A DNA stretch of 64,000 bases, from NCBI GenBank assembly GCA_041659805.1, contig JBAZXP010000001.1, positions 800,141-864,140 of the forward strand, in the 5' to 3' direction. The DNA is from Microgenomates group bacterium. GTDB lineage: Bacteria; Patescibacteriota; Microgenomatia; Daviesbacterales; UBA10151. The notes under the pieces were generated by a model, which was not told where the DNA came from, made no database searches, and saw only the letters and a program-made list of their open reading frames with translations. The translations under genes and the position numbers were made by a program. How positions within the stretch are numbered: position 1 is the first letter of the stretch; every line of letters starts with the position of its first letter. Of this stretch, positions 1 to 18,593 are shown one piece after another.

Positions 1-2
1 AA

Positions 3-1346
3 AAAGAAGCGGAACGTTATTGTCTGCTGATAGATAAAATATTTAAAGAGGAAGGAAAATCAGCAAAAAACATAGCTGGAAGACCAGTACTTATAAAGCT
101 TCTAGAGTACTGTCGTAAAAACAAAACCAAGATTAAAGCTGTTATTGTTTATCGATTAGACCGGGTATCAAGGGATACTGCCGATTATTTAGCAGTACGC
201 AAAAAACTTAGCGACTGGGGCATTACTATTATCTCTGCTACCGAGCCAACAGGTGACGGCCCGACTGAAAAACTAGTTGAAACTATATTGGCTGGATTTG
301 CCCAACTGGATAACGATATCAGAAGTGAAAGAGCAAAAAACGGAATGCACGCCCGTTTTGAATCAGGACTAATTAGCTCAGCTCCTCCTTTCGGGTATAT
401 AAAGGTTAATGGATTTGTTATGAGGGACGAAGCATCTTTTGACAAAATCAAAAAAGCTTGGGAACTAATGGCAACAGGAACAAAAAGCACTCGAGAGATG
501 GCAGAGATTATGAATAAATGGGGATTTAAAAGAGCTAAAGACGGCAAAAAGTTTAAAATCTCCTACAAATTCGTCCTTAGGATCTTCAGATCTAAATTCT
601 ATTCCGGAATTCTTTATTCACCAACATATAAAGAAGAGGCACAAGGCCAACATATTCCAATGATAACTATGGAAACTTTCTTAAAGGTACAGGAAATAAT
701 TGATGGAAGAAGCCATACAAAAATTAATTTAAAAAGGGATGTTTACCGTGAAGATTTCCCGTTAAGGAGATTCATCAGATGCAGTAAGTGTAACTATAAT
801 TTTACAGCGAGTTGGAGTACAGGTCGTCTTGGCGGTAGATATGCCTATTACCATTGTATAAACAAATGCCAGGGCTCATATATTCAAAGATCCATTTTTC
901 ATGATGCCTTTGCGCAACTATTAAAAACAGTCGATGTAAATAAATTAAGATCACTCACATTAATACTTGTAAATAAGCTACACCAATACCGTCTTGTTAG
1001 GTTTAAACAACGGGAAAGAATAACAGCAAGTCAAATTCAGAAGCTAAATGGCCAAAAACAATCAATGATTGAGAAAAATCTTGCTGGTGTTTTTCCGGAC
1101 GATGTTTTTAAGGAACAGTATCCATTGATAGAAAAACAGTTGCAGAATCTTGCAATACTGAATAATTCATTGCCTTTTGATCAGTATAATCTAGAAAGTG
1201 TGCGTCAACATGTTTTGAAAAACCTGGATGATTTACCAAAAGCCTTTGAGCAATGCGATATCAAACAAAAAAGAACATTTATTGGATTATTATTTCCACA
1301 AGGCTTAGTTTGGAATTATCCAGGGTTAACAATAAAGCGAACTTAA
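3..1346 (+). CDS. Large serine recombinase, 5'-truncated by the window edge. Resolvase catalytic domain continues into the recombinase domain and a C-terminal zinc ribbon.
   Basis: The frame is open from position 3. The ORF track's first residue at 288 is a TTG, not the true start. Translation includes VYRLDRVSRD (resolvase DRxSR-type motif) and a Zn ribbon CSKCNYNF...YYHC. It is a paralog of the recombinase at 16824..18548. Confidence 0.8.
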   Translation, partial: KEAERYCLLIDKIFKEEGKSAKNIAGRPVLIKLLEYCRKNKTKIKAVIVYRLDRVSRDTADYLAVRKKLSDWGITIISATEPTGDGPTEKLVETILAGFAQLDNDIRSERAKNGMHARFESGLISSAPPFGYIKVNGFVMRDEASFDKIKKAWELMATGTKSTREMAEIMNKWGFKRAKDGKKFKISYKFVLRIFRSKFYSGILYSPTYKEEAQGQHIPMITMETFLKVQEIIDGRSHTKINLKRDVYREDFPLRRFIRCSKCNYNFTASWSTGRLGGRYAYYHCINKCQGSYIQRSIFHDAFAQLLKTVDVNKLRSLTLILVNKLHQYRLVRFKQRERITASQIQKLNGQKQSMIEKNLAGVFPDDVFKEQYPLIEKQLQNLAILNNSLPFDQYNLESVRQHVLKNLDDLPKAFEQCDIKQKRTFIGLLFPQGLVWNYPGLTIKRT

Positions 1347-1370
1347 AGGGTTTAGTTATTCTCCCAATAA

Positions 1371-4300
1371 TTGCTCGGCTATCTTATAGCCCTAAATTTT
1401 GCTAAAATTTTATATATAACAATGACAGATCAAAAAAGTGAGACTTCATCCAATGAGAATAATGAGTTTGATATATCGAGAATTATTACTCAAGTAAAAA
1501 TATGGGGTGAGCGTCTTTTGGATTTAACAAAGGGAAATCCTTTATTGGGAATTAATCGATCAAGGGTGAGTAAGCTTCTGATTAAAACTCCTGATGCAAT
1601 ATCATTATTTAAAATGTTGGTCGTTGATGAAGTGGCGATTAAAATGCCATTGGTATTAATAAAGAAAAAAAAGGAGAAACAGGATGAGAAACAAACAAAA
1701 ATTGAAGAGATAGAAGACTCAGAAATTGAACCAGATTGTGTAGTGCATCCTGGGGATGTTGATTTTGACGCAGAGCCAAAAATTTTACATAGATTACTTA
1801 AAAGAATATACGATAATGGGCGATCAACTGTTGAAGAACGTGGCGTTACTACTCTACATTTAACTTTTGGAGTTTTGAACTGGAAAGATCCTATCTTAGG
1901 AGAATCCTCTTCCCCTTTATTATTAGTTCCATGTCAACTGGAGAACTACGGTCCAAATTCACATATGCGACTCAAGATGCTTGATGAAGAACTTCAGGTA
2001 AATCCTGCATTGGAATTTTATCTTAGAAAAAAACATCATATAGATTTGCCCGCGTTTTCTGAAGAACCAACTATTGAATCCCTAAAATTATTTCTATCAC
2101 AAGTACAGGATCGTATTAAAGAACAGCGTTGGGATATTGATAGTACTTCTTGGCTTAGTACATTCACATTTGAATCGCTGGTAATGTACAAAGATTTACA
2201 AACAATGGTAGAGATTGCACAAGTAAATCCTCTTATTGCAGCTCTAGCTAACGCACGTAAGATATCTGAGGGATCAGAAGTTTTGGGAGACGAATTGGAT
2301 AATTTAGATGTACCTAAAATAGTACCAATTCCAGTTATGACTGCTGATGCCAGTCAATTAGAAGCATTAACTATTGCTCAAACTGGTAAACATCTCGTGA
2401 TTAAGGGTCCGCCCGGAACAGGTAAAAGCCAAACAATCACAAATCTTATTGCAGAGGCTATTGGGAACGGTAAAAAGGTGCTCTTTGTTAGTGCCAAGAT
2501 GGCTGCGCTAAATGTAGTTCACGACAGACTTTCAAAGTTAGGTTTAGGAAGATTTTGTCTTGAAGCACACAGTACAAAAGCAGGAAAATTAAAAATTATA
2601 GAAGAACTCAAACGCACCCTAGAGACACCTCTTAGTGGTAATGGCGCATTACTTGAAGAACAACTCGAAGAGTTAAAAAAAATTAAAGCAAACCTTAATA
2701 GCTATGTAAAAGAGATGCATCTGCAAAAAGAGCCTTTAGGAAAAACAATTTTTCAGGCTATTGGTAAATTAGAGAAGCTGAATAATTTTGTATCACTAGA
2801 TTTTGACTTACCATGGTCTGACGTCACAGATGTAAGCAGAGAACAGCTAGGAGAAAGGCTTGAAGCTCTTGAGAATATTGCAGTTCAATCGAATATTTTT
2901 GACAAAAAGAATATTCATCCATGGCGAGGATTTATAGCGGACTCAGAGCAACCAATCTCCTCAGATGTAATTAAAAAAAACTTGCAAATAATTATAGATG
3001 GTGTTGATGATCTTAAGACTTCGCTGGAAAAACTAAATGATCTCTTAGTTCCTGTCGAGCCTGGATTTAAATTAAGAGAACTAAAAAAATTATTACAACC
3101 GTTGAATTCATTAGCCATAACCGATGAATTACCAAAGGGATGGATATCTAAAACAGAGGAGGAATTGAAAGACTTAGAAAATTTATTTGAGACAGCAGTA
3201 ACTAAATCAGAAGAATATCAAGATCTCATAAAGACATTTAAGGTAATTACATCTCTTTCTCCACGAGAATTGTTGGACTTATTGCGGCCGATTAATGAAC
3301 AATTTTCCTCATGGGCTCGAGTTGTTAACCCTAATTTTTGGAAATGGAAATCTTCTATAAGATCACAATTTACACTAAATGCTAATACCTCATATTCTTC
3401 ACTGTGTTCATATTTTGACATGGCCACAACCTTGGAAAAAATAGACATTTGGTTTAACTCAAATAGCAAAATACTTACAAAGTATGTAAGTAATCCCAAT
3501 GTTAATTCGAAATTATTAAGAGATAGAATTATTCATTTCAAAACAGCACATGAATTACAAATAGCGATTTCACAAAATATTCTTAAAAAACCAAAAAAGG
3601 AAATTTTAGATATTACTTCTCAATATCATAAAAGTATTTCAAAAATAATAGAAATTGTTGAAAACAAGGATTTTGAAAGCTCTGTCACAGCAATTGAATC
3701 TAGTTGGCCAGATGGATTTATTAATATGGAAAATATCGAAAATTCAACTTTGTCTTCTATTCAAGATAGAGTTAAAGAAGTTTTAGTATCTATACAGAAA
3801 ATGCACGAATGGATTGTTTTACAATCGTTAATTTCAAAGTGCGAAAATTTAAATCTGTCAAATTTTTTGTTGAGTTTAAAAAAAGTCGGAGCGAAAAATG
3901 CGTCTGAAGTTTTTGAAAAAAGATTTTATTCGCAGTGGATTGAAGCCTCCCTCAACTCCAATCCTAGCTTACTAGGATTTACAGGTTCTCTTCGGGAAGG
4001 GAAAATTAGCCAATTCAAAGATTTAGATAGAAAATTGCAGATTTCTATGCTAAAACGCATTCAATATAACGCATCTGAACCTGCAAGAAGCGTGATAGGA
4101 GCACAGAATAACTTTGGCAGTGGAGGAGAAGTTGGAATTTTGCGTAAAGAATTACAGAAAAGAAAGCGTATAAAACCATTGCGTAGATTATTTAATGAAA
4201 TCCCACATGTATTACAGGCTCTCAAACCTTGTATGTTAATGAGCCCTGTTTCCGTTTCTACTTTTCTAAAACCCGGTAGTGTTAATTTTGATCTTGTTGT

Positions 4301-6188
4301 ATTTGATGAAGCATCTCAACTACCAACTCCAGAGGCAATTCCATCTATTTTGCGCGGAAAGCAAATAATTGTAGCAGGCGATGAGAATCAATTACCGCCA
4401 ACATCTTTCTTTTCGGCATCAACTATATTTGAAGAAGAAAATGAATTAGATCCGTCTGAAGAATTTGAGCCACTAGAATCTTTGCTAGATAATTGTATGG
4501 CAATTGAGCCAGTATTTCAGGAAAGCAAAATAGTCTGGCATTACAGAAGTAAGGACGAGCGCTTAATTCAATTTTCTAATCGATTTTTTTATAATAATTC
4601 TCTTATTACATTTCCTGCTTCAACCACGAGCAATGAAGGTAGAGGCGTACATTTAGTTTACACGGAAAAAGGGACTTGGGATCGAGGACGAAGTAGGACT
4701 AATAGAATTGAAGCAAAACGAGTAGCAGAAGTTGTGGTAGAGCAATTTAAGAAGTATCCTGATCGTTCTTTAGGTGTTGCATCTATGAACGCTAGCCAGA
4801 AAGAGGCTATCGAGGATGCCCTTGATGAATTAATGGTTAACAAGCCCGAGCTACAAGCCCTTCTGGATACAAATCGGCCAGAACCATTCTTTGTTAAATC
4901 ATTAGAAAATGTCCAAGGTGACGAAAGAGATACAATCATTATTTGTGTGGGTTACGCTAAAACCCCAACAGGAGCTCTAAGTCTTAATTTTGGTCCATTA
5001 AATAGTGAGGGTGGGTGGCGCAGATTAAATGTGCTAGTTACAAGAGCTAAGTGGCAAACGATTTTAGTTACAAGTTTACGCAGCCATGAACTAAGCGCAA
5101 TTAACCCACTAAACAAAGGTGCCATCATGCTTCGAAACTATATTCAATATGTCGAACAAGATGGAAAACTTCCTCCTGATCCAGTAACAACAACTAGCGA
5201 TGAAACTAATGATTTTGAAGACTCTATAGCAACCGCTCTTCGAGATCGAGGTCTTATTGTTGACGAGCAAGTAGGTGCTAGTGAATATCGCATTGACCTT
5301 GCAATTCGAGATCCTAGAGATAAAAATAGATATATTATGGCCGTTGAATGTGATGGTGCTACTTATCATCATACAAAAACAGCACGTGACCGAGATATGT
5401 TGCGCGAGGAAGTGTTGCGATCTCAAGGTTGGAAAATATATCGTGTATGGTCTACAGATTGGTTCAGGGATCGTGAAGATGCACTTAAAGGGATACTTTC
5501 AGGATTAGAAGCAGCAAAGAGAGCACCTGCAAAGGACTCTGTGCAGGCTAAGCCAATTATTCAAGTCACAAGTAATATAGAGCATTCATACGATGATTTG
5601 ATCAAGGAAAAAGATTCGGCGAATCACAAAAGAAAGTACAAGCAAGGTATTCCTTACCGAAAGTATTTGTTAAATAATAAAAGGAAGTTTTCAAAAGAAT
5701 TATTAAACAAAAATGGAACTGTTCAACTGTCAGCAGTTATCACCAGTATTGTTAAATACGAATCACCGATACACGCAGATGTAATCATCGAAAGATTAAA
5801 AGAAATATATGGAGTAAGTCGGGCTGGGGCGAATATACAAAAAAATGTAACCTATGCAATAGAGAGATCTACACACTGGTCAGATTTGATAAATCGATCA
5901 GGATTTATATATAAAAACGAAGATGACAATAACGAATTTAGAGTTCCCGCACAAGGAGTGGTAAGAGGCCTAAATCAAATTGCACCAGAAGAAATTGAGA
6001 ATGCAATACTTTATCTAGTTGAAGATCAGTTTGGCTTTGCACGAGAACATATTTCCAAAGCAATTTTAGAAGTTTTCGGCATTGGTAATAATCGCGCGGA
6101 GCCTATTGAAATTATAGAGTCAGCGATTAATCGACTACTTAGTAAGAAAAAATTAAATTTGAATGGCCACACCTTATATCTTAGCTAA
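1371..6188 (+). CDS. Large multidomain helicase-nuclease: DUF4011-like N-terminus, Upf1-like SF1 helicase core (AAA_11/AAA_12), DUF559 (Vsr/REase-like) endonuclease domain and a DUF3320-like C-terminus. The likely true start is the ATG at 1422 (MTDQKSE...).
   Basis: Walker A GPPGTGKSQTITNL. Motif II VVFDEASQLP plus AGDENQLPPT. Motif VI NVLVTRAKWQTILV. N-terminal LHLTFGVLNWKD...LLLVPCQLE is DUF4011-like. YRIDLAIRDP...AVECDGATYHH...RDR..L...GW.IYRVWSTDWF is DUF559-like. VITSIVKYESPIHADVIIERL is DUF3320-like. Confidence 0.85.
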   Translation: MLGYLIALNFAKILYITMTDQKSETSSNENNEFDISRIITQVKIWGERLLDLTKGNPLLGINRSRVSKLLIKTPDAISLFKMLVVDEVAIKMPLVLIKKKKEKQDEKQTKIEEIEDSEIEPDCVVHPGDVDFDAEPKILHRLLKRIYDNGRSTVEERGVTTLHLTFGVLNWKDPILGESSSPLLLVPCQLENYGPNSHMRLKMLDEELQVNPALEFYLRKKHHIDLPAFSEEPTIESLKLFLSQVQDRIKEQRWDIDSTSWLSTFTFESLVMYKDLQTMVEIAQVNPLIAALANARKISEGSEVLGDELDNLDVPKIVPIPVMTADASQLEALTIAQTGKHLVIKGPPGTGKSQTITNLIAEAIGNGKKVLFVSAKMAALNVVHDRLSKLGLGRFCLEAHSTKAGKLKIIEELKRTLETPLSGNGALLEEQLEELKKIKANLNSYVKEMHLQKEPLGKTIFQAIGKLEKLNNFVSLDFDLPWSDVTDVSREQLGERLEALENIAVQSNIFDKKNIHPWRGFIADSEQPISSDVIKKNLQIIIDGVDDLKTSLEKLNDLLVPVEPGFKLRELKKLLQPLNSLAITDELPKGWISKTEEELKDLENLFETAVTKSEEYQDLIKTFKVITSLSPRELLDLLRPINEQFSSWARVVNPNFWKWKSSIRSQFTLNANTSYSSLCSYFDMATTLEKIDIWFNSNSKILTKYVSNPNVNSKLLRDRIIHFKTAHELQIAISQNILKKPKKEILDITSQYHKSISKIIEIVENKDFESSVTAIESSWPDGFINMENIENSTLSSIQDRVKEVLVSIQKMHEWIVLQSLISKCENLNLSNFLLSLKKVGAKNASEVFEKRFYSQWIEASLNSNPSLLGFTGSLREGKISQFKDLDRKLQISMLKRIQYNASEPARSVIGAQNNFGSGGEVGILRKELQKRKRIKPLRRLFNEIPHVLQALKPCMLMSPVSVSTFLKPGSVNFDLVVFDEASQLPTPEAIPSILRGKQIIVAGDENQLPPTSFFSASTIFEEENELDPSEEFEPLESLLDNCMAIEPVFQESKIVWHYRSKDERLIQFSNRFFYNNSLITFPASTTSNEGRGVHLVYTEKGTWDRGRSRTNRIEAKRVAEVVVEQFKKYPDRSLGVASMNASQKEAIEDALDELMVNKPELQALLDTNRPEPFFVKSLENVQGDERDTIIICVGYAKTPTGALSLNFGPLNSEGGWRRLNVLVTRAKWQTILVTSLRSHELSAINPLNKGAIMLRNYIQYVEQDGKLPPDPVTTTSDETNDFEDSIATALRDRGLIVDEQVGASEYRIDLAIRDPRDKNRYIMAVECDGATYHHTKTARDRDMLREEVLRSQGWKIYRVWSTDWFRDREDALKGILSGLEAAKRAPAKDSVQAKPIIQVTSNIEHSYDDLIKEKDSANHKRKYKQGIPYRKYLLNNKRKFSKELLNKNGTVQLSAVITSIVKYESPIHADVIIERLKEIYGVSRAGANIQKNVTYAIERSTHWSDLINRSGFIYKNEDDNNEFRVPAQGVVRGLNQIAPEEIENAILYLVEDQFGFAREHISKAILEVFGIGNNRAEPIEIIESAINRLLSKKKLNLNGHTLYLS

Positions 6189-6225
6189 ACTAAATCAAGC
6201 AAATTTAAATATATAGCGACTTCTT

Positions 6226-7725
6226 TTAAATGATAACTGGGGCATATAATTCTTTCCAGATAGCATACATTGCATATGCATCTAGACCACAGTATTTTTT
6301 TAAGTCTGTAATAATTTTTTCTTTTTCTAGCTGATCTATTTTTTCAGAATACAATCTATTCCAAATTTCTGCAGCGCTTCCCCCATCTTGTATTTCCAGC
6401 TCTTTATAGCTAAGACTAGGTACCATTACTGGTAATACTTTTTTAATTGAAGTACTACCTTTAAAATCCTTATGCACATAATATTGTTTTTTGAATATAT
6501 CCATTAAGTCATATACTCGTATATTCAAAGAATCTATGAATTCTTTAACCTCAGGAATTCTCAAAGCTATTTCACTATTTCTTCCGCACTCAAAAACTTT
6601 ATTCCAAACAATAACACTACCTGAATCTTGTATGTTTTTTTGTAGCGAATCAACAAAATACCTACTTGGATCATCGAGATCCGAATGAAGAAATTCTAAT
6701 AATTTTGGTTCTTCATCTGCAGACTCAAGAACATAAAGCGAATATTGAAAAGGAATATGCTGATAGGGAGAAAATCCATCAAAACGGGGTATAGCACAAG
6801 GAAGTGTTTCGTAATCGATGAAATATAGAGGAAATTTTAAATTTTGTAGTTCTTTTAAAATTGTATCTTTGTTAATAAGTGGAGCATTGGATTTGTATGC
6901 ATCAATTTGATTTTGTTGAATATCAGAGAGTTTAATATGTGGTGGAATTTGGTGAATTTCAAAAATGTTACCATCAACTAAGTCCTGTAGTTTTTGCCTG
7001 CTTAAGCCTATACGAGAGATGTCGTGAATACCATATTCCGGTATATCAGGATTTATTATAGAAAAACAAGTGCAGTGATTAGATCTTCCTTTATATACAC
7101 ATGTACAAAAACCAACTGGAAGAGATTCTTGGGAGAGGTATGTAATGCCACTATCCATTTCAATTGAGACCTCTTCACAAAGACTTTCGATTTTTTCAGT
7201 AATATCTTCAATTTGAAAGAGTCCTATTATATTCAATTCTCCCGATCGAATATATTCCTTATTAAGATGGATAAGACAAATCTTTTCTACAGTTAGCCCT
7301 GACTTGCGAAGTAAATTCACTTGAAATGCTAAATCATAGTAATGAATCTTTTCGTCAATTTCATTTGTAGATTTTACTTCATATACTGTATAGCCGTTTG
7401 TTTCGGAATTAAGCTCCAGAATATCAATAGCTGCAAAGAAGTAATCTTTTTCAAACGCCGCTTGAAAGATAATAGGTGTCTTATCTTCAATATATTTTAA
7501 TGTCAGTAATTGCTCTGCACGATCCCTACCTTCTACTAAAACCCCTGCTGGAAAAAGTTTACGAGCCGCTAATTCAACTTCATTCCCTGCTTGTATAATC
7601 ATTCTTTCGAATGCAGATAATTCATGTTGGTAGTAAATCTTGGGTTCATGTATCTTGTACCAAGCATTCTTTTTACAAGCTCTATATAATATATAATCTG
7701 TTTTAGATAACGTGATTGAATTCAT
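6226..7725 (-). CDS. Cas4-like PD-(D/E)xK nuclease domain protein with a cysteine cluster and a ~270-aa C-terminal domain of unknown function (architecture resembles DUF2779-type proteins)
   Basis: N-terminal YRACKKNAWYKIHEP. AIDILE...YTVYEVKSTNE supplies the D...ExK motifs. CTCVYKGRSNHCTCF is a cysteine cluster. The gene is convergent with the helicase gene and tandem with a second Cas4-like gene. Confidence 0.6.
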   Translation of the reverse strand: MNSITLSKTDYILYRACKKNAWYKIHEPKIYYQHELSAFERMIIQAGNEVELAARKLFPAGVLVEGRDRAEQLLTLKYIEDKTPIIFQAAFEKDYFFAAIDILELNSETNGYTVYEVKSTNEIDEKIHYYDLAFQVNLLRKSGLTVEKICLIHLNKEYIRSGELNIIGLFQIEDITEKIESLCEEVSIEMDSGITYLSQESLPVGFCTCVYKGRSNHCTCFSIINPDIPEYGIHDISRIGLSRQKLQDLVDGNIFEIHQIPPHIKLSDIQQNQIDAYKSNAPLINKDTILKELQNLKFPLYFIDYETLPCAIPRFDGFSPYQHIPFQYSLYVLESADEEPKLLEFLHSDLDDPSRYFVDSLQKNIQDSGSVIVWNKVFECGRNSEIALRIPEVKEFIDSLNIRVYDLMDIFKKQYYVHKDFKGSTSIKKVLPVMVPSLSYKELEIQDGGSAAEIWNRLYSEKIDQLEKEKIITDLKKYCGLDAYAMYAIWKELYAPVII

Positions 7726-7736
7726 AACTTACTTCC

Positions 7737-9981: not shown

Positions 9982-9995
9982 TTCTATAAACCTAC

Positions 9996-10036
9996 CGTTT
10001 GTTTAACATGCAAGCGGTAGGTTTTATTCTACAACT
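9996..10036 (+). terminator. Rho-independent terminator-like hairpin followed by a T tract
   Basis: ACCTACCG...CGGTAGGT stem (8 bp) followed by TTTTATTC, immediately after the 9575..9981 stop codon. The loop is long (17 nt). Confidence 0.35.
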
Positions 10037-10085
10037 TGCCAGATATTTGTTTTGTCTTTTGTAAACCGGAACTGTCTTGTACAGG
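10022..10085 (-). pseudogene. C-terminal fragment (about 19 codons plus stop) of a paralog of the Replication-relaxation-like gene at 12673..13452
   Basis: The minus-strand translation ...QFRFTKDKTNIWQVVE* matches the C-terminus ...AIRFTKDKTSIWQKVE* of the 12673..13452 protein. The segment is about 58 bp at roughly 85% nucleotide identity to 12676..12733. Confidence 0.6.
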
Positions 10086-10102
10086 GACCTAAAGTAAAAG
10101 TA

Positions 10103-11047: not shown

Positions 11048-11120
11048 AATACATAATTTTATACATCTTATGGTTCCTCCTTGTCAATAATTGTTCATAT
11101 ATAAAGCCTTAGTGATTATT

Positions 11121-11276
11121 TTATTCAGTAGGAGTTTCTACACTTATCCATATATCATCTTCTGCACACCAATAAACAACCTTTTTATATTCTTTATATT
11201 TTTTGCCCTTTTTACCATTATTGGTAACTGCATCCCATTGTTCTGTCATTTTCTGCTTACACCTTGAACATTTCAT
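11121..11276 (-). CDS. Small cysteine-containing protein (51 aa), not in the ORF track
   Basis: Manual translation gives MKCSRCKQKMTEQWDAVTNNGKKGKKYKEYKKVVYWCAEDDIWISVETPTE*. A truncated copy of its 3' end is present at 11972..12025. Confidence 0.35.
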   Translation of the reverse strand: MKCSRCKQKMTEQWDAVTNNGKKGKKYKEYKKVVYWCAEDDIWISVETPTE

Positions 11277-11368
11277 GAAATTATTATACCTCAGTCACAC
11301 GAATTATAGATTTAAGCTTTTTATATCAAGAAATTGTATTTAAAAAATCAATGTGATATTTTGGTATT

Positions 11369-11626
11369 ATGACACGGTCACCAGATTATGAACCATATTA
11401 CAGACCAACAACTAATCGTACAAGTTTAAATTTTACTGAAAGAGCTGCAAACCATTTAATAGCATCTATTGTTTATGGCGGTTTTTTTATTACCCGTCCT
11501 GATGCATTATTTAAAAATACTCCACGAGAAATTGCTAAAGGATATCAGAGATTTTACAACAACATGGATCATATAGGATTGTTGCCATATAGACCATTAG
11601 TAGGCTGTATAAAAACTATTCACTAA
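11369..11626 (+). CDS. Hypothetical protein (85 aa)
   Basis: ORF only. Confidence 0.3.
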   Translation: MTRSPDYEPYYRPTTNRTSLNFTERAANHLIASIVYGGFFITRPDALFKNTPREIAKGYQRFYNNMDHIGLLPYRPLVGCIKTIH

Positions 11627-11671
11627 TCAATTGCTGTTTTTTAAATTCTCAGGTTTTGTTATAGTAAAAAT

Positions 11672-11860
11672 ATGATTTATGAAATTATTGGCTGGATTGG
11701 TACAGGATTAGTTCTATTGGCATATTTTTTGGTATCGACCCGCAGAATTGCCCCTACCTCAAAGGAATATCAATTGATAAATTTGTTTGGTGCGTTAGGT
11801 ATTATTATTAACTCTGCCATACATATGGCAATTCCTTCTGTGGGACTTAATGTTGTTTAG
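11672..11860 (+). CDS. Hypothetical small membrane protein (62 aa, two predicted TM segments)
   Basis: Hydrophobic segments IIGWIGTGLVLLAYFLV and LFGALGIIINSAIHMAI. Confidence 0.3.
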   Translation: MIYEIIGWIGTGLVLLAYFLVSTRRIAPTSKEYQLINLFGALGIIINSAIHMAIPSVGLNVV

Positions 11861-11971
11861 TTACTAATTGCTGTTTATGGATTATTAAAAGTAGGTAGGA
11901 AATAATTATTTAGCTTTCTACCCCAATATTGGCCTTACCTTCACTAATTCTTTTACTGATTTCCTAAGTGA

Positions 11972-12025
11972 TTTTATTTAGTAGAGTTTTTACACTTATC
12001 CAAATATCATCTTTAGAATTGCGAT
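11972..12025 (-). repeat. About 50-bp imperfect direct repeat of 11113..11166. It is a truncated remnant of the small Cys protein gene's 3' end.
   Basis: tgattttatttagtagagtttttacacttatccaaatatcatcttt versus tgattattttattcagtaggagtttctacacttatccatatatcatcttc. The minus-strand translation ...SKDDIWISVKTLL matches ...AEDDIWISVETPTE. Confidence 0.55.
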
Positions 12026-12058
12026 ACATGCCTATAGTGTGCTAGAATTCCTGTCTAT

Positions 12059-12655
12059 ATGAGTATTATTGAAGAAGGAAGAGGTTCTAGCGAAGTTATT
12101 GGGCGAAATCCAGAAATGATGCAAGTCAGAAATCTACCTGGATATGTTGCATTGGTTAGGTATACTTATGATTTGTTGCCAGATGAAGAAATCTATACAA
12201 AAGTTTTGCAGAACAGAAACGTATTCGGCTTCGATCATCAACCAATAATTTCAGATAGACATTTACATGGAGATTTTGCGGTAACAAGAGGCCAAGGTAT
12301 TGAAGGATATAATTTATTAGGTTCAGATGAAGTTAGAAATACCCGAAATCAAAGGAGAAACCAATTAGAAATGATCTTATATAATTTGGAAAAAGCAGAA
12401 GCTTTTATGGATTCCGTAGATTCTACGCTTGCAGGTTTAGGGTTCCGTGGTCAGATTGCGCTGAAACTTAAATATCAATTAGATTCTTCTCTCCCTTCAT
12501 TGTCTAGTAAAGAGATTGGCTCAAGAATTAAAGAAGGAATGGGTAGAAGAGGGGCACGAACCTCTTTTAAAAGAGGGATTTCGCGTTTAAGAGAAAAATC
12601 AGTTGCAAAAGACATATTTGATTTTTTAGATAGAAGAACTCCTCAAGCAATATAA
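12059..12655 (+). CDS. Hypothetical protein (198 aa)
   Basis: ORF with an ATG start. No recognizable motif. Confidence 0.45.
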   Translation: MSIIEEGRGSSEVIGRNPEMMQVRNLPGYVALVRYTYDLLPDEEIYTKVLQNRNVFGFDHQPIISDRHLHGDFAVTRGQGIEGYNLLGSDEVRNTRNQRRNQLEMILYNLEKAEAFMDSVDSTLAGLGFRGQIALKLKYQLDSSLPSLSSKEIGSRIKEGMGRRGARTSFKRGISRLREKSVAKDIFDFLDRRTPQAI

Positions 12656-12672
12656 AAGTATTTAAGAAATAA

Positions 12673-13452
12673 TTATTCTACTTTCTGCCAGATACTTGTT
12701 TTGTCTTTAGTAAACCGGATTGCATCTTGTGTAGTTAAAAATAGTGAGATGTCTTCAAATGTTTTTTCCAAAACTGCTTTACCGTAATAATAGATATGCT
12801 TTTTTCTCTTTTCGTCCTGAAGGATGAAAAGAATTAAGGGGAAAGGGCTATTATTCGTATTGGCTTGCCAGTCACCGCATTCGCAGTAGGAAATATATTG
12901 TTTTATTCTTTGCCTTGGAAGAAATGCCGGGTTTTTATAACCGTCATAAAGATCAAGAAAATACCTGTCTGTCCCTTCTTTGCTGTTAACCGCAATATAA
13001 GCGTCTGGTAACTCATCAGGGAAATAATCATATCCTATCAAATCTTGTGGTGTAAAAAAGCTTAGTTCTGTATCTCTTGCTTGTTGTTTTAAGAAAAAGA
13101 GATAGATATCAAAAATAAAAAGACAATGGTTTCTAAAATTCTCAGTTAATTTCTTCTCCTTATATATTCTTTCTAAAAAGCTTTTGTCATTATTTTCATC
13201 TTCTTGCAAAATATGTCTTGCTTTTGTATCTAAGCAGAATATAAAAGGTTTTGTAGGATTTTTTGTGTCTTTTATTGCGTAGATATATTTATTTTCTCTT
13301 AATGTTTTTAATCGTTCTTTTACTCTGTGTGGATCTTTATGATTAAAGTATTTTTGTAGTTGGTTGATTGTTAGGAAACGGAATTTGTAGAGTAAGAAGA
13401 GAATTTGTTTTTGGTATTTTTTTATTGATTTAGTATTTTTATTATCTTTCAT
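12673..13452 (-). CDS. Replication-relaxation family-like protein with an N-terminal winged-helix domain
   Basis: N-terminal ILFLLYKFRFLTINQLQKYF...RVKERLKTLRENKYI matches the hallmark ILxLLyxhRFLTxxQlxxLlf...RLkkLxexGli of Replication-relaxation (PF13814-type) proteins. It lies adjacent to a coupling-protein-like ATPase. Confidence 0.6.
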   Translation of the reverse strand: MKDNKNTKSIKKYQKQILFLLYKFRFLTINQLQKYFNHKDPHRVKERLKTLRENKYIYAIKDTKNPTKPFIFCLDTKARHILQEDENNDKSFLERIYKEKKLTENFRNHCLFIFDIYLFFLKQQARDTELSFFTPQDLIGYDYFPDELPDAYIAVNSKEGTDRYFLDLYDGYKNPAFLPRQRIKQYISYCECGDWQANTNNSPFPLILFILQDEKRKKHIYYYGKAVLEKTFEDISLFLTTQDAIRFTKDKTSIWQKVE

Positions 13453-13620: not shown

Positions 13621-16524
13621 TTAGCTCTTTCTATCCTCTGGAAAACCGCTTTTAGATGTAACTATATTTTTACTATTTGAATGCTTTTCATTGCTAACTT
13701 CACTTAGATTGTTAGTAACTTTTTGATATTTGATTGCCCAGTTTTTTCTTGAAGCCTCAATTAATTTTTCAATCTTTTTAGAATTTTTATCTACAGGTAT
13801 AAATATTGTTTCACCAGAAAAAGGTTCCTCCGATTCAATTGCGGAAATTTTAATATAAAAGCGATATCTTGGAAGATTCATAATCGCACCTTTTTCCAAG
13901 TAAGGGCTGAACTGATTTAGCATTAACTCCTCGTCAACATAATTACCGCTTCTGAAACTAATAACTGTGGTGACATTGGCAAGAATAATATTTGTAATAT
14001 CCCTGTCTTTTTGCTGGGAGGTGGATTGTTCTGCAATTATTAAAGGCATTTTATATTTTCTTCCCTCAGTAACCATTTTGGTAAATGAGGGGGTAGCAAA
14101 AGTTTGAAATTCATCAACATATAAATAGAAACTTTTTCTTTTGTTTTGTGGAATGTACGCTCTTTTTAATGCTGCTTGTTGAAGTTTGGTCATAATGGTT
14201 GTACCCATTAATCTTGAAGAATCTTCTCCTAATTTTCCCTGTGAGAAATTACAAATTAAAATTTTTCCTTGATTAATAATGTCATCAAAGTTTATTGTTG
14301 ATTTTGACTGTTCAAGGATTCTTTTAGCAGTTGGGGAGCGCATAAACCTTCCGACTTTTGCTGTTACACCCTGTGTCATTTTTACAACCTGAAAGTCTCC
14401 GGCTTTGCCAAATTCGTATTTCCAAAAATCAACCAAGTCTTCATCTTTTAATCGGCTAATTACATTTTTTCTAAAAGTAGGATTTGTTAAAATTTTATTG
14501 ATAGTAAATAAGGTGCATTCTTCGATTGTAAATGCAGTATAAATAGTATTTCGTAAAATATATTCAATCCTATGGGCATTGGTACTTTCGTCTTTAGAAA
14601 AAACTTTTCTAAACAGGGAAATTACACCTTCAGCGACTACTTCTTTTTCTAACTCTGCATCTTCCTCGTCTAATCCTCGAGTGAGTTCCAATAAATTAAT
14701 TCCTATTGGATACTTTAAATCAATGGGGTTAACATAAATTAGATCATCCTTTCTACTTAAGGGAATTGATGCAACCAGATCTTCTGCCACATCTCCATGC
14801 GGATCAATAAAAGCTAAACCTCTACCTTCTTCGATATCGTGTTTAGCCATTGAAAACATTAAGGTTGTTTTTCCACTTCCAGTTCTTCCCAAAATATACA
14901 TATGGGTTTGTCTTTCTTCCTCTGTTAGCCCAATATCCGTAGTTGTCCCTCCGTATGTATTTTTTCCGAAGATGACATTTAATTTTGTATCTTTTTTTAG
15001 AGACAAAGGAGCTGGTAGCTCTTTGCTGTAAAGTTTTACAATATCTTCTGTTTTTGTTGTATCAGTGTAAGGAAAATGATAAAAATCCGAGAGTTCAGAA
15101 ATAGAAAGAATGGGGTTTTTATTAAAAACGCTACTATGCGACAGTATTCTTCTTTTAAATTGGTCTAACCGCTGCCTTATTACTAATGGAGAAGGGAATA
15201 AACTTCTTTTCGTATTAATCGACTGGAAGGCTGTATTCATAACACCAAAGGATGCCATAAGGCCAGAGACCCTGCTTTTAAGCTCTTCTGAATCCTTTGT
15301 TATAACAAGCATTCGTATTGATGTTTCAAACAAAGGCTGGTCTATTTTTTCTTTTACAGTTATTTGTAACTCCTGTTCGTAAGGATTTAGCGTTTCTTGT
15401 GTGGAAGCAGCATCCATCGCCTCAGAAGCCATTAAAAAAGGAATCGCTTTACCGTTTGGATCCATAAAACCCAAAAGCATGCTATAGACAAACATCCAAA
15501 AAAATTTAAAAATCGACCATACTCCTTTGATAAATATTGCAATGATTGAAACTCCTGGTAATTCAGCAATCTTTTGTAAAATGTTTTGGTTTAACAGGGG
15601 CGTAAGCGGTTGTCTTTGGTACATACTCTTCCTTAAACCATTCATACTGCTTACAATATTTTTATGAGTATTCGACAAGACAGGAGTTGTCACTATTTGA
15701 AATGATATAAGCTCATTATCTTTTAGCTTTGTCATGTTACCAGTCAAATAAGAAATCGGATCGTGTTCTTCGAGCACTTTTTGTTTAGAAAGAGGCAAGG
15801 CAAAGGTTGATGCTAGTTTAAACTCAACAATACCTTGATATATTTTGTCTTGTGGGTTATCTTCTATATAATCTTCTACCTCTACAATCCTTATACCTGG
15901 CAAATAAGATAAAAGGCTCCTCTTAATAACATTGGCATTTTTTATATCTGTTACAAGAATATATCTAATCCCTTGATTCTTGGTTGAAATAATTTCCAGG
16001 CTAAATACTTTTTTATTTTTTAATAATCGTTCACTAAAACTTTGTTGCCTGGCAAGGCTATGTAGTAGCGTGTAAAGCTGTTGAGTAGCATATGCTGATT
16101 TACTAGTATCAGACGGAAAGGTTAATTCAAGAAAAACCTTGTTTGGTTTAGGAATAAATTTTGAAAAAAGAAACGGGGATAGTGTTTGAAAGAGTGAAGC
16201 CAAAATCTTCGTAAAAATCAAAAGAATAGCTATGCTTAAAATAAGAGTTACCGGCCAAAATATGATTAAAATACTGACGGCTACAGGTTGCGCGCCAAAT
16301 AATCCCGTAACAGACGAGCTTGAAGCAGTAAGTGCATTATACATATCCAGTCTCGATTGAAGTGGAAAGAGTGACTCAGGTAATGGAAATTTAAGCAGGA
16401 AGCCTAAAATAAGAGCATTTATAAAAGGCATTTGCTGGTTTTGTATCTGCTGGAGCAACTGCAATTGCTGGACATCAACTGCGTTGTGGGGAATAAATGT
16501 CGGCAATGGCGTTTGATTTGTCAT
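13621..16524 (-). CDS. TraD/VirD4/TraG-like type IV coupling protein (FtsK/HerA-superfamily ATPase) with N-terminal transmembrane segments
   Basis: Walker A YILGRTGSGKTTLMF followed by FIDPHGD. Walker B SFYLYVDEFQTFAT...RKYKMPLIIAEQS. Several N-terminal hydrophobic helices. The protein is 967 aa. Confidence 0.7.
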   Translation of the reverse strand: MTNQTPLPTFIPHNAVDVQQLQLLQQIQNQQMPFINALILGFLLKFPLPESLFPLQSRLDMYNALTASSSSVTGLFGAQPVAVSILIIFWPVTLILSIAILLIFTKILASLFQTLSPFLFSKFIPKPNKVFLELTFPSDTSKSAYATQQLYTLLHSLARQQSFSERLLKNKKVFSLEIISTKNQGIRYILVTDIKNANVIKRSLLSYLPGIRIVEVEDYIEDNPQDKIYQGIVEFKLASTFALPLSKQKVLEEHDPISYLTGNMTKLKDNELISFQIVTTPVLSNTHKNIVSSMNGLRKSMYQRQPLTPLLNQNILQKIAELPGVSIIAIFIKGVWSIFKFFWMFVYSMLLGFMDPNGKAIPFLMASEAMDAASTQETLNPYEQELQITVKEKIDQPLFETSIRMLVITKDSEELKSRVSGLMASFGVMNTAFQSINTKRSLFPSPLVIRQRLDQFKRRILSHSSVFNKNPILSISELSDFYHFPYTDTTKTEDIVKLYSKELPAPLSLKKDTKLNVIFGKNTYGGTTTDIGLTEEERQTHMYILGRTGSGKTTLMFSMAKHDIEEGRGLAFIDPHGDVAEDLVASIPLSRKDDLIYVNPIDLKYPIGINLLELTRGLDEEDAELEKEVVAEGVISLFRKVFSKDESTNAHRIEYILRNTIYTAFTIEECTLFTINKILTNPTFRKNVISRLKDEDLVDFWKYEFGKAGDFQVVKMTQGVTAKVGRFMRSPTAKRILEQSKSTINFDDIINQGKILICNFSQGKLGEDSSRLMGTTIMTKLQQAALKRAYIPQNKRKSFYLYVDEFQTFATPSFTKMVTEGRKYKMPLIIAEQSTSQQKDRDITNIILANVTTVISFRSGNYVDEELMLNQFSPYLEKGAIMNLPRYRFYIKISAIESEEPFSGETIFIPVDKNSKKIEKLIEASRKNWAIKYQKVTNNLSEVSNEKHSNSKNIVTSKSGFPEDRKS

Positions 16525-16615: not shown

Positions 16616-16645
16616 TTGACACTGTGTCTAGAAGGATAGTATATT
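16616..16645 (+). promoter_or_regulatory. Sigma-70-like promoter, TTGACA with 18 nt spacing to TATATT, overlapped by two palindromic operator-like sites
   Basis: cttgacactgtgtctagaaggatagtatattatcc. Palindromes GGATAgtatatTATCC and ATTATCCttatagGGATAAT sit just upstream of the small ORF and recombinase. Confidence 0.5.
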
Positions 16646-16666
16646 ATCCTTATAGGGATAATAATT

Positions 16667-16837
16667 ATGGCAAGACTGAAAGGTAGTAAGAATAAAAATT
16701 CCGAAGAAAGAATCACAACCTCTAGCTTGTCACTTCAGGAAAGACTGCGCTTTATTGCTAACCTGATCATAGAAAAAGCCTTAGAAGATCAGAAAAACGG
16801 CAAGGTTTTAATTAGAAAGATCTATGAGTCTAAGTAA
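16667..16837 (+). CDS. Small basic protein (56 aa) immediately upstream of, and overlapping, the serine recombinase start. Candidate recombination directionality factor or regulator.
   Basis: Manual translation gives MARLKGSKNKNSEERITTSSLSLQERLRFIANLIIEKALEDQKNGKVLIRKIYESK*. It overlaps the recombinase ATG by 14 nt and lies downstream of a strong promoter-like site. Confidence 0.35.
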   Translation: MARLKGSKNKNSEERITTSSLSLQERLRFIANLIIEKALEDQKNGKVLIRKIYESK

Positions 16838-18548
16838 CATTCCTAAAATTGAGAACGCGGTTGCTGCAATAAGAGTTTCTTCAACCCAGCAAGGTACTGA
16901 TGGTGATTCCCCTGAAGCACAGAAAGAGCAGATAGAAAGATTTGCCGCTAACCATAACTTTAACGTCAAAAAGATCTTTGTTTTCATGGAGTCAGCGTCC
17001 AAAGAGCAACAACCCATGCAAGAAGCAATTGACTACTGTAAAAATCCTAAAAATGATATTCAGCAATTTATCATTAAATCTATAGATAGATTTACCAGAG
17101 GTGGTTCTTACTCATACGACCATCTTAAAATGCAGCTGGAAAAATATGAAGTCAACTTAGTAGATATTTATGGGGTCATCAGTTCTCACAAAGTGAACAC
17201 TTTAGAGCACTTGGGAGTTTCGTTTAATTGGAGCGTTTACTCTCCTACTAAGAAAAGTGAACTATTGGAGGCTGAAAGAGCTAAAGACGAGATGCGGGAT
17301 ATCATGTCTAGAATGATCGGGGCTGAAATTCGCTATGCCAGAATGGGCTATTGGGTGCGGGAAGCTCCCATTGGATATGTTGTTGAAAAGATTGAAACAC
17401 CAAACGGTAAAAGATGTATTTTAAAACCTCATCCTATTGAATCCTCATGGATTATCAAAATGTTTGAATTAAGATGCAGGGGAACTTTAGGAGATCATCA
17501 AATAGTTGATGAGATAAACAAGCTAGGCTTTAAAACAAGAATAGATTATGTCAGAGACCAGCACGACAGAACTAAAATTATTAAGGAACATGGAGGTCAT
17601 AAGCTGGATATTAAAGGCTTCTGGAGGTATATTCAAAATCCTGTTTATGCCGGAGTCAGTGCAGAGAAGTGGACGGAAGGCCATAGAGTTAAAGGGAAAT
17701 ATGAAGGATTAGTTTCAATTGATACTTTCAATAAAGCAAATAAGGGGAAAGTTATTATTTCTGAAGAGGATGGTCAAATTAAACTTTATAGGAAGCAACC
17801 AGAAGAATGGAGGATCAAAAAAGGAGTAAGAAATCCGGATTTTCCATATAAACGGGTTGTATTATGTCCTCATTGCAAAAGACCGTTATACGGCAGTGCT
17901 TCTAGAGGTAGACTAGGCAAGTACTACCCTGCATATCACTGTAGTAAAGAAGGCCACAACTTTAGGGTTCCTAAGAAAGACTTTGAAGAAGCAATAATTA
18001 AATTTGTTAAAAATATAAATTTAGCACCAGGTTATATAGATGAGTTAGTTAAATCTGTAACCGAAGAATGGGACAAAAGACAGAAGGAAATCACTAAGGA
18101 TACTACCAATTATGATGAAAGAATCACTCAGCTAAAAACCCAAGTTAAGATGACAATTGATAAAATTAAATTTCTCACTTCTGAAGTGGCTATTAGATAT
18201 ATGGAGCAAGACTTAGTTAAAGCAGAAGAAGAAATAGCTCAACTTATGATCGACAAGCAAAAGGCTGATCAGGAAAAACCAGTAGATGCCAATATTATTA
18301 TGGCGTATATAAAATATTATCTAGAGCACATGGACGAATTATTGTTAGATAATAATTCAGATCCCATATTTAAGGCTAATTGTTTTGGAGTGCTTTTTGA
18401 TAAGGCTCCAACCTATACGGAAATAAACAATTTTACTTCTGGAAAAATAGATTCTGGAACACCTGATTTAGCAAGTTGTATCGCTCTAAACGAGGCCTTC
18501 ATTAGATCTCAAGGGAAGCTGGCTGCGGGACATGGATTCGAACCATGA
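16824..18548 (+). CDS. Large serine recombinase (integrase)
   Basis: Catalytic motif AAIRVSSTQQG and DRFTRGG (resolvase domain). Recombinase domain and Zn ribbon CPHCKRPLYGSASRGRLGKYYPAYHC. Coiled-coil C-terminus. The 3' end overlaps tRNA-Gln. Confidence 0.85.
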   Translation: MSLSNIPKIENAVAAIRVSSTQQGTDGDSPEAQKEQIERFAANHNFNVKKIFVFMESASKEQQPMQEAIDYCKNPKNDIQQFIIKSIDRFTRGGSYSYDHLKMQLEKYEVNLVDIYGVISSHKVNTLEHLGVSFNWSVYSPTKKSELLEAERAKDEMRDIMSRMIGAEIRYARMGYWVREAPIGYVVEKIETPNGKRCILKPHPIESSWIIKMFELRCRGTLGDHQIVDEINKLGFKTRIDYVRDQHDRTKIIKEHGGHKLDIKGFWRYIQNPVYAGVSAEKWTEGHRVKGKYEGLVSIDTFNKANKGKVIISEEDGQIKLYRKQPEEWRIKKGVRNPDFPYKRVVLCPHCKRPLYGSASRGRLGKYYPAYHCSKEGHNFRVPKKDFEEAIIKFVKNINLAPGYIDELVKSVTEEWDKRQKEITKDTTNYDERITQLKTQVKMTIDKIKFLTSEVAIRYMEQDLVKAEEEIAQLMIDKQKADQEKPVDANIIMAYIKYYLEHMDELLLDNNSDPIFKANCFGVLFDKAPTYTEINNFTSGKIDSGTPDLASCIALNEAFIRSQGKLAAGHGFEP

Positions 18549-18593
18549 TAAACAGATCCAAAGTCTGTTGTCCTACCATTAGACGATCCCGCA
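18520..18593 (-). tRNA. tRNA-Gln (anticodon UUG), CCA encoded
   Basis: Manual fold: acceptor UGCGGGA/UCCCGCA with U1:A72, anticodon stem ACAGA/UCUGU, loop CUUUGGA, T-arm CAUGG-UUCGAAU-CCAUG, discriminator G then CCA. It overlaps the recombinase 3' end by about 26 nt. Confidence 0.75.

Follow-up and report, generated by a model that had tools for sequence, protein, structure and literature searches.

A stretch of 64,000 nucleotides (nt) from a Microgenomates/Daviesbacteria-like Patescibacteria genome, called the window throughout, begins inside a gene for a large serine recombinase (Rec1) and carries a second such gene (Rec2) that runs into a tRNA-Gln gene. The question raised by this locus is whether the two recombinases and the genes between them make up one mobile element, two elements side by side, or the remains of an element that no longer moves. 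Patescibacteria are a huge, uncultured and host-dependent radiation of ultra-small bacteria in which gene exchange is little known; the window's GalU is 100% identical to a protein labelled "Microgenomates group bacterium" at NCBI, and its nearest non-identical relatives come from Candidatus Daviesbacteria, at 84-88% identity. The left flank was taken from the 837-kb ENA contig k141_1343880, the flank record (L001) adding 8,579 nt left of the window and matching the window at 100% over an overlap of 16,188 nt. We conclude with good confidence that window positions 1 to about 18537 are the tRNA-proximal part of a single integrative mobilizable element (IME) that continues past the left edge and measures at least about 27 kb.

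The gene content that carries this conclusion consists of an integrase, a relaxase and a coupling protein. The relaxase candidate belongs to the Replic_Relax family and also matches a PHROG family annotated "replication initiation by nicking" (E=1e-5); no solved structural relative of it was found. Replic_Relax (PF13814) comprises MOBC relaxases, and streptococcal IMEs of class 8 combine a serine integrase, a MOBC relaxase and a VirD4 coupling protein (PMC5357655). The VirD4-like coupling protein is hydrophobic in several segments near its N-terminus, and its strings GRTGSGKTT, FIDPHGD and YVDEFQ include both Walker motifs. It scores above the Pfam cut-offs for DUF87, TrwB_AAD_bind and TraG-D_C, and its only PDB matches are DotL and TrwB; the NCBIfam model SXT_TraD gives 46.8 bits, short of its equivalog threshold of 366, and the protein represents a distant, phylum-specific subfamily. 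The element thus encodes its own relaxase and coupling protein with no mating-pore genes, the content of an IME, and the VirB4 and mating-pore components of an integrative conjugative element were not found in it.

A large serine integrase joins attP and attB with a 2-bp crossover, and the reverse reaction requires a directionality factor. Rec2, presumably the element's integrase, scores above the Pfam cut-off for the Resolvase domain (PF00239, E=6.8e-9) and has the motif AAIRVSSTQQ; NCBIfam XisF aligns to its residues 16-496 (E=4e-13). Its open reading frame (ORF) ends in 29 nt, or 9 codons, that are antisense to the tRNA-Gln gene at the 3' end of the latter (acceptor and T arm). A 56-amino-acid (aa) ORF that overlaps the Rec2 start is kept upstream of Rec2-type recombinases and is possibly a regulator or directionality factor. 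The original prediction, made from the window alone, had described two recombinases, a Replication-relaxation-like protein, a coupling ATPase and housekeeping genes following a tRNA-Gln, and had deduced conjugative mobilization; the ORF listing, the tRNA search and domain scans bear out all of these features where it placed them, and with integrase, relaxase and coupling protein present and the mating pore absent, mobilization of the IME type at tRNA-Gln stands as well. To the right of the tRNA lie, in order, a 73-aa ORF, DUF378 and GalU, and the remaining window is likewise housekeeping, with genes for a glycosyltransferase, GlmS, aminoacyl-tRNA synthetases, a penicillin-binding protein and ATP synthase.

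Related genomes with empty sites place the right end of the element at the tRNA. Three were found, namely a Daviesbacteria metagenome-assembled genome (L087), a JGI contig (L089) and a sequence from the window's own ENA sample (L092), with GalU proteins 84-88% identical to that of the window. All three keep the order tRNA-Gln(ttg), one variable gene, DUF378 and GalU; on the 3' side of the tRNA they have a terminator hairpin or unrelated genes, and recombinase, relaxase and coupling protein are absent. The gene order is thus not core synteny conserved everywhere, the outcome that the original prediction had named as speaking against it. The tRNA of L087 and L092 equals the window sequence from 18523 onward, and similarity to the empty sites begins at 18522, the tRNA 3' end; the encoded CCA of the window tRNA-Gln is missing in two of the three empty sites. 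Because these relatives belong to different species, the empty sites show variability of the locus rather than recent mobility. Orthologues of the genes that flank the empty sites were found in neither the window nor L001, so that synteny does not set the left boundary. Of the two junctions that a comparison with empty sites had been proposed to define, attR is placed to within about 18 nt, no attL was found within the 27 kb available, and attL is known from the relatives L098 and L096 alone.

Those two relatives carry a displaced fragment of about 18 nt of the tRNA-Gln 3' end at the far end of the element. In L098 it reads TAGCTGCGGGACTAGGAT, directly after a terminator hairpin resembling those of the empty sites, and the Rec2-side attR in L094 is TGGCTGCCGGGCTAGGAT; the far end of L096 is GCTGCCGAGCAGGGATTC and the attR in L095 GCTGCCGAGTAGGGATTC, a closeness of match for which a sequence-length estimate gives a chance expectation of about 1e-5 in the L095/L096 contig. 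In both pairs of attachment sites the common stretch ends within the T-stem/T-loop, which suggests that the element supplies the terminal ~18 nt of the tRNA. By this reading, the window junction would lie at about 18531-18537 rather than at 18520. Over the final ~35 nt leading up to the tRNA, the window and the L094 element share 83-90% identity, against a gene mean of 74%, as would fit a conserved P arm.

Further features were seen around these tRNA sites. Directly upstream of the tRNA-Gln 5' end, the window has a 21-nt insertion relative to L087 and L092 (18594-18614) that repeats the first 7 nt of the tRNA (TCCCGCA, + strand) and contains the hairpin TACATTTGCGG/CCGCAATGTA; the insertion may be either a scar left by recombination or a leader hairpin. 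No terminator follows the window tRNA-Gln, unlike the empty sites, and read-through from the tRNA promoter would yield RNA antisense to the Rec2 gene, possibly controlling integrase expression. The gene between tRNA-Gln and the DUF378 gene (window 18714-18935) differs among relatives, being a 73-aa ORF in the window, a 221-aa ORF in L087 and L092 and YkoP in L089, so the 5' side of the tRNA is also a variable spot. Left of its element, L096 has three copies of a unit of about 180 nt (3279-3410, 4639-4815 and 6866-7042; 77-79% identical) that divide small gene blocks, e.g., Fic with a 295-aa ORF; the two full copies start with the T-loop-like GTTCGAATCC and end like the tRNA-Gln 3' end, and the units look like accretion scars at a tRNA site. 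In L098, 141 nt of G+C-rich sequence with several hairpins (CCTGTCGCCTTCGGCGACAAG, CCCCTTACCTCTGCGAGGGG) separate the displaced tRNA fragment from the conserved left terminus (5654-5795). Rfam gave no match in the L096 region scanned, which held the two full copies, or in the L098 junction region.

The element belongs to a family found across Patescibacteria. More than 497 homologues of the coupling protein were found, and all supplied organism names are Patescibacteria except for one labelled Sulfotelmatobacter; a profile scan with one genome per species gave 589 coupling-protein relatives in 600 sampled stretches. We annotated 80 returned loci with the window proteins. Of the 29 closest, 18 have the relaxase gene beside the coupling-protein gene and 17 have a large serine recombinase nearby, the usual layout being a recombinase divergent from the coupling protein, which is followed by the relaxase. 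Three recombinase types alternate in this position: a Rec2-like one with the 56-aa ORF, a Rec1-like one with a 72-aa ORF, and a third type. Of the 14 loci that allow a judgement, 12 have a recombinase ORF that reaches into a tRNA gene convergent with it, as do L094 and L095 (both at tRNA-Gln). The 12 targets are tRNA-Arg(gcg), tRNA-Lys(ctt) (twice), tRNA-Lys(ttt), tRNA-Leu(gag) (three times), tRNA-Leu(tag), tRNA-Leu(cag), tRNA-Gln(ttg), tRNA-Glu(ttc) and tRNA-Glu(ctc), with overlaps of 22-176 nt. Because the recombinase ORF enters the tRNA in any of the three frames, a selected peptide was rejected as an explanation of its antisense tail, which is best read as incidental read-through. In L032, an element of 16.6 kb whose Rec1-type recombinase is frameshifted fills exactly the space from tRNA-Leu(cag) to tRNA-Leu(gag)/tRNA-Val (3657-3819, 20464-20551); in the window (27792-28050) and in other relatives these tRNA genes adjoin one another, which makes this a clean two-sided insertion site, with no displaced tRNA fragment.

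How far the element extends to the left was read from five elements with a common gene order: that of the window and those in L093/L097/L098, L095/L096, L099 and L100, the right end of the last two (Rec2 and tRNA, for L099 also the relaxase) being supplied by inference from the coupling protein on the same contig. From the left, the order is PLDc_2, none to two helix-turn-helix (HTH) regulators with a variable gene, a small ORF, a Rec1-type recombinase of 480-484 aa and variable defence cargo; then a structured non-coding region, relaxase, coupling protein and, divergently, a small ORF, a Rec2-type recombinase and tRNA-Gln. In the related elements, 0.3-4 kb separate the left end from the Rec1 module, which follows the PLDc_2 gene and the HTH regulators, and since this order places PLDc_2 left of Rec1, the element must run past the left edge of the window; homologous element sequence (HTH_3) indeed reaches at least 6.9 kb beyond it. 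Rec1 had been taken for the element boundary in the original prediction, and in this respect the prediction was wrong. The search of the left flank that it recommended recovered the full Rec1 gene and more element sequence, and the left junction was absent from these 8.6 kb. A left terminus conserved in the family, GCTGGCGAGCTT…GGTGGAACCAAAT, lies about 130 nt upstream of PLDc_2, with three different sequences adjoining it on the outside. The left end of the window element is predicted to consist of PLDc_2, this terminus motif, a terminator and then ~18 nt of tRNA-Gln 3' end (about CTGCGGGACATGGAT).

Four contigs of about element length (17.7-22.3 kb), namely the Logan contigs SRR18595301_55467, SRR22388342_94229 and SRR22388034_489413 and ENA ERZ27253378 k141_1031009, start just upstream of PLDc_2 or at a 132-bp repeat described below, and their visible far ends fall inside the tRNA. 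Because independent contigs break there, the element ends appear to be assembly branch points in several samples. A Logan contig was considered as an excised circle and rejected: its ends do not overlap each other and are explained by a 58-nt exact repeat and by shared tRNA sequence (k-1 = 30).

Rec1 itself gives every sign of being an intact gene. Its frame is open from base 3 of the window to 1346, the full gene spans L001 8483..9925 with its start 97 nt left of the window, and a 72-aa ORF upstream, together with the Rec1 start, spans 97-315 nt left of the window; by position alone, the 72-aa and 56-aa ORFs are candidate directionality factors. The Recombinase and Zn-ribbon domains of Rec1 are both above the Pfam cut-offs, and PF00239 is annotated in the full-length protein, with the motif LYLRVSTEEQ. 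The Zn-ribbon strings are CSKCNYNFTASWSTGRLGGRYAYYHC in Rec1 and CPHCKRPLYGSASRGRLGKYYPAYHC in Rec2, the latter with CxxC…YHC, and neither recombinase sequence had a significant match among solved structures. Both recombinases with their Zn ribbons are thus present as originally described, and the word paralogous used for them was generous, given 22% identity over 337 aa (E=4e-14). The nearest 26 homologues of Rec1 all measure 473-484 aa, whereas more distant ones mostly measure 503-588 aa; the ~480-aa clade ends a few codons past a conserved WNYPGL motif, without the ~25 C-terminal aa through which relatives next to a tRNA gene continue into that gene. A C-terminal motif, PTYxEL…GTPKLAP(Y/F)I.L (window 18390-18480), is common to the tRNA-adjacent Rec2 and long-Rec1 types, where it sits ~13-20 residues before the tRNA junction, and is lost from the internal ~480-aa clade. 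In the closest element (L093/L094/L097/L098), amino acid identities between the window and L093 are 78% for Rec1, 79% for Rec2, 81% for the relaxase, 73% for the coupling protein and 88% for the HTH protein, with dN/dS ratios of 0.06, 0.05, 0.07, 0.11 and 0.05, respectively. This similar divergence and purifying selection argue that the element modules co-diverged and that Rec1 is functional. Judged from these sequences, Rec1 qualifies as an intact, functional and conserved second recombinase module near the left end, with a small upstream ORF and a divergent HTH regulator.

Several observations weigh against our reading of the locus as an integrative mobilizable element. The empty sites come from other species, none from the same strain, and no excised circle or attP junction was seen: metagenome pattern scans with the L001 end and with the conserved P arm gave no match, and an IMG/VR scan for near relatives or circular forms found only coupling-protein relatives of 23-33% identity. 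Among the element and window proteins scanned with Pfam and NCBIfam, VirB4 and mating-pore genes are lacking, and no type IV secretion genes lie in the window. The Recombinase and Zn-ribbon domains of Rec2 stand at the expected positions just under the Pfam cut-offs (19.8 and 21.7 bits), and an alignment of 21 relaxase homologues has a common "PDAY" and "YFLE.FD" region in which no position is at least 90% conserved. No tRNA-Gln fragment was found within 27 kb left of the tRNA by blastn with a word size of 7 or by fuzzy matching with up to 4 mismatches, and none of the available flanks of 12 other loci has a displaced tRNA fragment, save for a second complete tRNA in L032; because fragments are missing in these loci, including L032 with both flanks visible, the T-loop crossover may not be general. 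Lastly, the complete tRNA of L094 differs from the displaced fragments in the acceptor and anticodon stems, for which a single simple integration is insufficient. Past this complete tRNA-Gln, L094 has a gene for a transposase-like HTH protein (HTH_28), followed by 35 nt from the 5' part of another tRNA-Gln allele, ending in the anticodon loop (14-48, 94-783). Given the stem differences and this fragment, L094 underwent more than one event, and its arrangement requires a second insertion or a complete tRNA borne by the element.

Other explanations of the locus were weighed against this evidence. By tandem accretion at one tRNA, an older Rec1 element on the left would be followed by a newer one, running from the ProA-like gene to Rec2, between it and tRNA-Gln, with the boundary in the 75 nt that separate the ProA-like gene from the stop codon of Rec1. 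Such accretion at sites of this kind is suggested by the repeated units bearing tRNA fragments in L096; moreover, a Rec1-type recombinase with the same small ORF is the sole recombinase beside coupling protein and tRNA in L008, L012 and L032, and sequence conservation between related elements breaks off immediately past the stop codon of Rec1, and likewise past Rec2. Yet Rec1, cargo and Rec2 recur in this arrangement in five elements, the modules shared by the window and L093 have diverged to a similar degree, Rec1 shows strong purifying selection, and the Rec1 clade is fixed at ~480 aa without the stretch leading into a tRNA. No tRNA fragment follows Rec1, and the tRNA-Gln fragment that pairs with the Rec2-side junction is left of PLDc_2, outside Rec1. 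We regard a tandem origin as unlikely, a simple tandem array included, and favour a single element that contains both recombinases; the composite or tandem element considered in the original prediction, otherwise right in kind about an IME at tRNA-Gln, is probably wrong.

The same genes could instead be a fixed defence island that is no longer mobile, with recombinase, coupling protein and relaxase as relics or exapted for a function other than transfer, a possibility that has been raised for Patescibacteria coupling proteins (PMC12102498). This would account for the mating-pore genes absent from element and window and for the failure to see an excised form; some related loci (L030-L033) have frameshifted recombinases or coupling proteins, and two secondary insertions have accumulated in this copy. 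Yet all core genes are intact and under purifying selection, integration targets vary between genomes over five tRNA identities (Arg, Lys, Leu, Gln and Glu), empty sites exist, cargo varies among otherwise collinear elements, and assemblies from several samples break at the element ends, so that we think a fixed island quite improbable. For an integrated plasmid or prophage-like element it can be said that Replic_Relax is also annotated as a replication protein and that the PHROG match of the relaxase concerns replication initiation; we consider this very improbable. Pfam and PHROG scans of element proteins gave no match to virion, packaging or lysis genes, the PHROG search covering ten of them (uncharacterised proteins, relaxase and small ORFs), the coupling-protein relatives in IMG/VR are distant, and Pfam and NCBIfam scans found no partition or separate replication genes.

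The single IME with two recombinases could work as follows. Rec2 would recombine two sites, attP at the 3' end of the Rec2 gene and attB, nearly all of which falls within the tRNA gene; the crossover would fall in the T-stem/T-loop, and the tRNA would stay intact because the element provides its last ~18 nt (plus CCA). After excision, the MOBC-type relaxase would nick a cis site, most likely in the structured non-coding region (9410-9560), and the VirD4-like coupling protein would hand the DNA with its bound relaxase to a type IV secretion system whose genes lie outside the element. Patescibacteria commonly have such systems on the chromosome (PMC12102498). The variable slot between Rec1 and the transfer module carries anti-phage genes. 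The structured region is 67-85% identical in nine elements that among them carry all three recombinase types, and it is always near the relaxase gene, while the gene downstream of it is not conserved. Pairing holds in 96% of cells, against 40-58% in slid controls, the last helix has compensatory changes in 5 of 10 pairs, and Rfam has no match for the region. It is a candidate for the origin of transfer (oriT) or another cis-acting site of the transfer module, oriT being the best guess from its position beside the relaxase gene; a single-strand origin or a regulatory RNA are alternatives. A bolder joint reading, which we offer as a speculation with little weight, holds both that the ~480-aa Rec1 clade is a cargo-site recombinase, analogous to an integron platform, that captures or swaps defence cassettes at a site next to its own stop codon, and that this element family lies behind many of the "orphan" VirD4-like coupling proteins of Patescibacteria. 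Cargo-site activity of Rec1 would explain why unrelated defence systems start exactly there in five otherwise collinear elements.

Table 1. Coordinates of the element's features within the 64,000-nt window.
Feature	Position	Strand	Basis
Rec1, C-terminal 447 aa of a 480-aa large serine recombinase	<1..1346	+	Recombinase and Zn_ribbon_recom domains
ProA/PDC-S37-like defence cargo, 1588 aa (DUF4011, SF1 helicase AAA_11/AAA_12, MTES_1575 nuclease, DUF3320)	1422..6188	+	
DUF2779 protein, cargo	6226..7725	-	
PD-(D/E)XK (Cas4-like) nuclease, cargo paired with DUF2779	7737..8576	-	
239-aa protein with CxxC pairs, no family match above threshold	8671..9390	+	
Conserved structured non-coding region, three helices	9410..9560	+	Comparison of nine elements
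135-aa protein at the position of the DUF2958 gene in L093/L095	9574..9981	+	
Relic of relaxase gene 3' end, 87% identical; left edge of ~2.6-kb secondary insertion (10071-12672)	10024..10070	.	
Secondary insertion: 314-aa (-), 85-aa (+), 62-aa CBU_0592-family membrane (+) and 198-aa (+) proteins	10103..12655	.	
Replic_Relax (MOBC-type) relaxase candidate	12673..13452	-	PF13814, 33.5 bits against a cut-off of 25.3, 186/191 profile positions
VirD4-like type IV coupling protein, 967 aa, N-terminal membrane/DUF8128 region	13621..16524	-	
56-aa ORF overlapping the Rec2 start	16667..16837	+	
Rec2, 574-aa large serine recombinase, presumed element integrase	16824..18548	+	Resolvase domain; NCBIfam XisF
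attR region: element-side (P) arm and inferred crossover zone in T-stem/T-loop	18485..18537	.	
tRNA-Gln(ttg), integration target	18520..18593 (ARAGORN); 18523..18593 (Rfam, 65 bits)	-	

In all five elements the cargo starts immediately behind the stop codon of Rec1, and unrelated systems alternate in the slot: a ProA-like protein in the window, restriction-modification with GmrSD in L097, MmeI-like with OLD in L096, and type III restriction-modification with CBASS in L100. A search of four elements for paired motifs at both edges of the slot, as possible Rec1 sites, gave nothing consistent. The ProA-like protein of the window matches PDC-S37, a PADLOC candidate defence family, nearly over its full length (1224 bits), and NCBIfam ProA with 1182 bits, against a cut-off of 1500, at model positions 345-1901 only. 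The DUF2779 protein recurs in L012, L013 and L028, and in L099 as a 502-aa protein annotated as RNase_H_2. In both the window (1422-8576) and L099 (2551-9734), a trio is formed by the ProA/PDC-S37-like protein, a 279-aa PD-(D/E)XK protein (PDDEXK_1) and the ~500-aa DUF2779/RNase_H_2-like protein, in different gene order; the L099 trio also comes after Rec1. The three may constitute a three-gene defence system rather than a single-gene one. The 135-aa protein downstream of the structured region was considered as the counterpart of the DUF2958 protein encoded there in L093 and L095 and rejected, since the two are not homologous.

Two blocks are secondary insertions in this copy relative to L093. 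One, of 2.6 kb, is bracketed by a 47-nt repeat with 87% identity (10024-10070 and 12673-12719) and is absent from L093, L095 and L100; in L093 the corresponding gene directly abuts the relaxase gene. Shorter repeats lie within or at the edge of this block (11132-11161/11984-12013, 93%; 11886-11922/12653-12689, 81%). The other, of 6.2 kb, belongs to the content of L001 left of Rec1, which comprises an iron permease, a P-type ATPase, a PQ-loop protein, two GT4 glycosyltransferases, an HTH_3 regulator and, left of the HTH gene, a 639-aa protein with no Pfam or PHROG match. This block (glycosyltransferases, PQ-loop protein, P-type ATPase and iron permease) lies between the HTH regulator and the small ORF, is absent from L093, and is bracketed by a 132-bp direct repeat with 93% identity (L001 1924-2055 and 8220-8351; window -6655..-6524 and -359..-228) that includes, from the small ORF preceding Rec1, the promoter and about the first 20 codons. 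Because the flanking repeats are long and imperfect, homologous recombination with related elements would account for these blocks better than site-specific insertion.

In a survey of Patescibacteria (PMC12102498), 5,713 VirD4-like coupling proteins were found, mostly far from virB4, along with only 109 relaxases, 58 of them MOBC and 39 near a coupling-protein gene. Its main text uses neither "integrase" nor "recombinase", and it left open both the exaptation of the coupling proteins and whether conjugation exists in these bacteria at all. The locus and its relatives make the latter question directly testable and offer a concrete answer, itself open to testing, to the coupling-protein puzzle for one subfamily. 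If the orphan coupling proteins do belong to such elements, chromosomal type IV secretion would still serve DNA mobilization, by way of divergent MOBC relaxases that standard searches mostly miss. The element is also a vehicle of anti-phage systems in organisms whose defence repertoire is poorly mapped. Serine integrases have been described as "not known for targeting tRNA genes", and such use, predicted for 14 of 297 (4.9%), was called previously unreported and in need of proof (PMC7192596); the present locus and its relatives add a consistent set, and integrases with an attB inside universally conserved tRNA sequence could interest genome engineers.

The element is of a kind already known, and the closest described kind is streptococcal IME class 8; tRNA targeting, the conserved second integrase and the abundance in Patescibacteria were not known before. 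Its distinguishing features are the tRNA-targeting serine integrases, the second recombinase beside a slot for defence cargo and the candidate oriT, in a phylum whose mobilizable elements are barely described. Like IME_Class_8 of streptococci (Coluzzi et al. 2017, PMC5357655), the element has the same three modules and no mating pore and is mobilizable rather than conjugative, the likeness being one of module content. In contrast to that class of Firmicutes elements, it resides in Patescibacteria, targets the 3' end of a tRNA gene, has a second conserved large serine recombinase and a DUF8128 N-terminal region on its coupling protein, and carries defence genes in a cargo slot. With the large serine integrases of phages and integrative conjugative elements (ICEs), such as A118, Bxb1, phiC31, XisF and CcrB, it shares a Resolvase domain with N-terminal R-V/x-S, a Recombinase domain, a CxxC…C Zn ribbon and an integrase gene at the element edge beside the att site, XisF and CcrB being the best NCBIfam matches, and it differs from them in using tRNA genes as targets, in an ORF that runs antisense into the tRNA and in having no significant match to a solved structure. 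Islands that target tRNA genes by means of tyrosine integrases likewise insert at the 3' part of the tRNA, supply a replacement 3' end, have the integrase gene adjoining the tRNA and leave an imperfect direct repeat of the tRNA 3' end at the far junction, here seen in L098 and L096; the chemistry here is that of a serine recombinase, and the repeat spans just ~18 nt and did not turn up in most of the loci searched.

More than one large serine recombinase per element is known from SCCmec (ccrA/ccrB) and from streptococcal ICEs with serine-recombinase triplets, whose genes are adjacent and act together; by contrast, the two genes here are ~15 kb apart, flank the cargo, have their own small ORFs and share 22% identity. 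The conserved backbone with a slot in which unrelated anti-phage systems alternate resembles the defence-cargo hotspots of P4-like satellites, SXT ICEs and pipolins (PMC11551731, PMC10201445), from which the present family differs in host phylum and backbone and in a slot that opens exactly at the Rec1 stop codon. Compared to the survey of coupling proteins in Patescibacteria (PMC12102498), our results place at least one large subfamily of these proteins in tRNA-integrated elements, together with a recombinase and a divergent MOBC relaxase.

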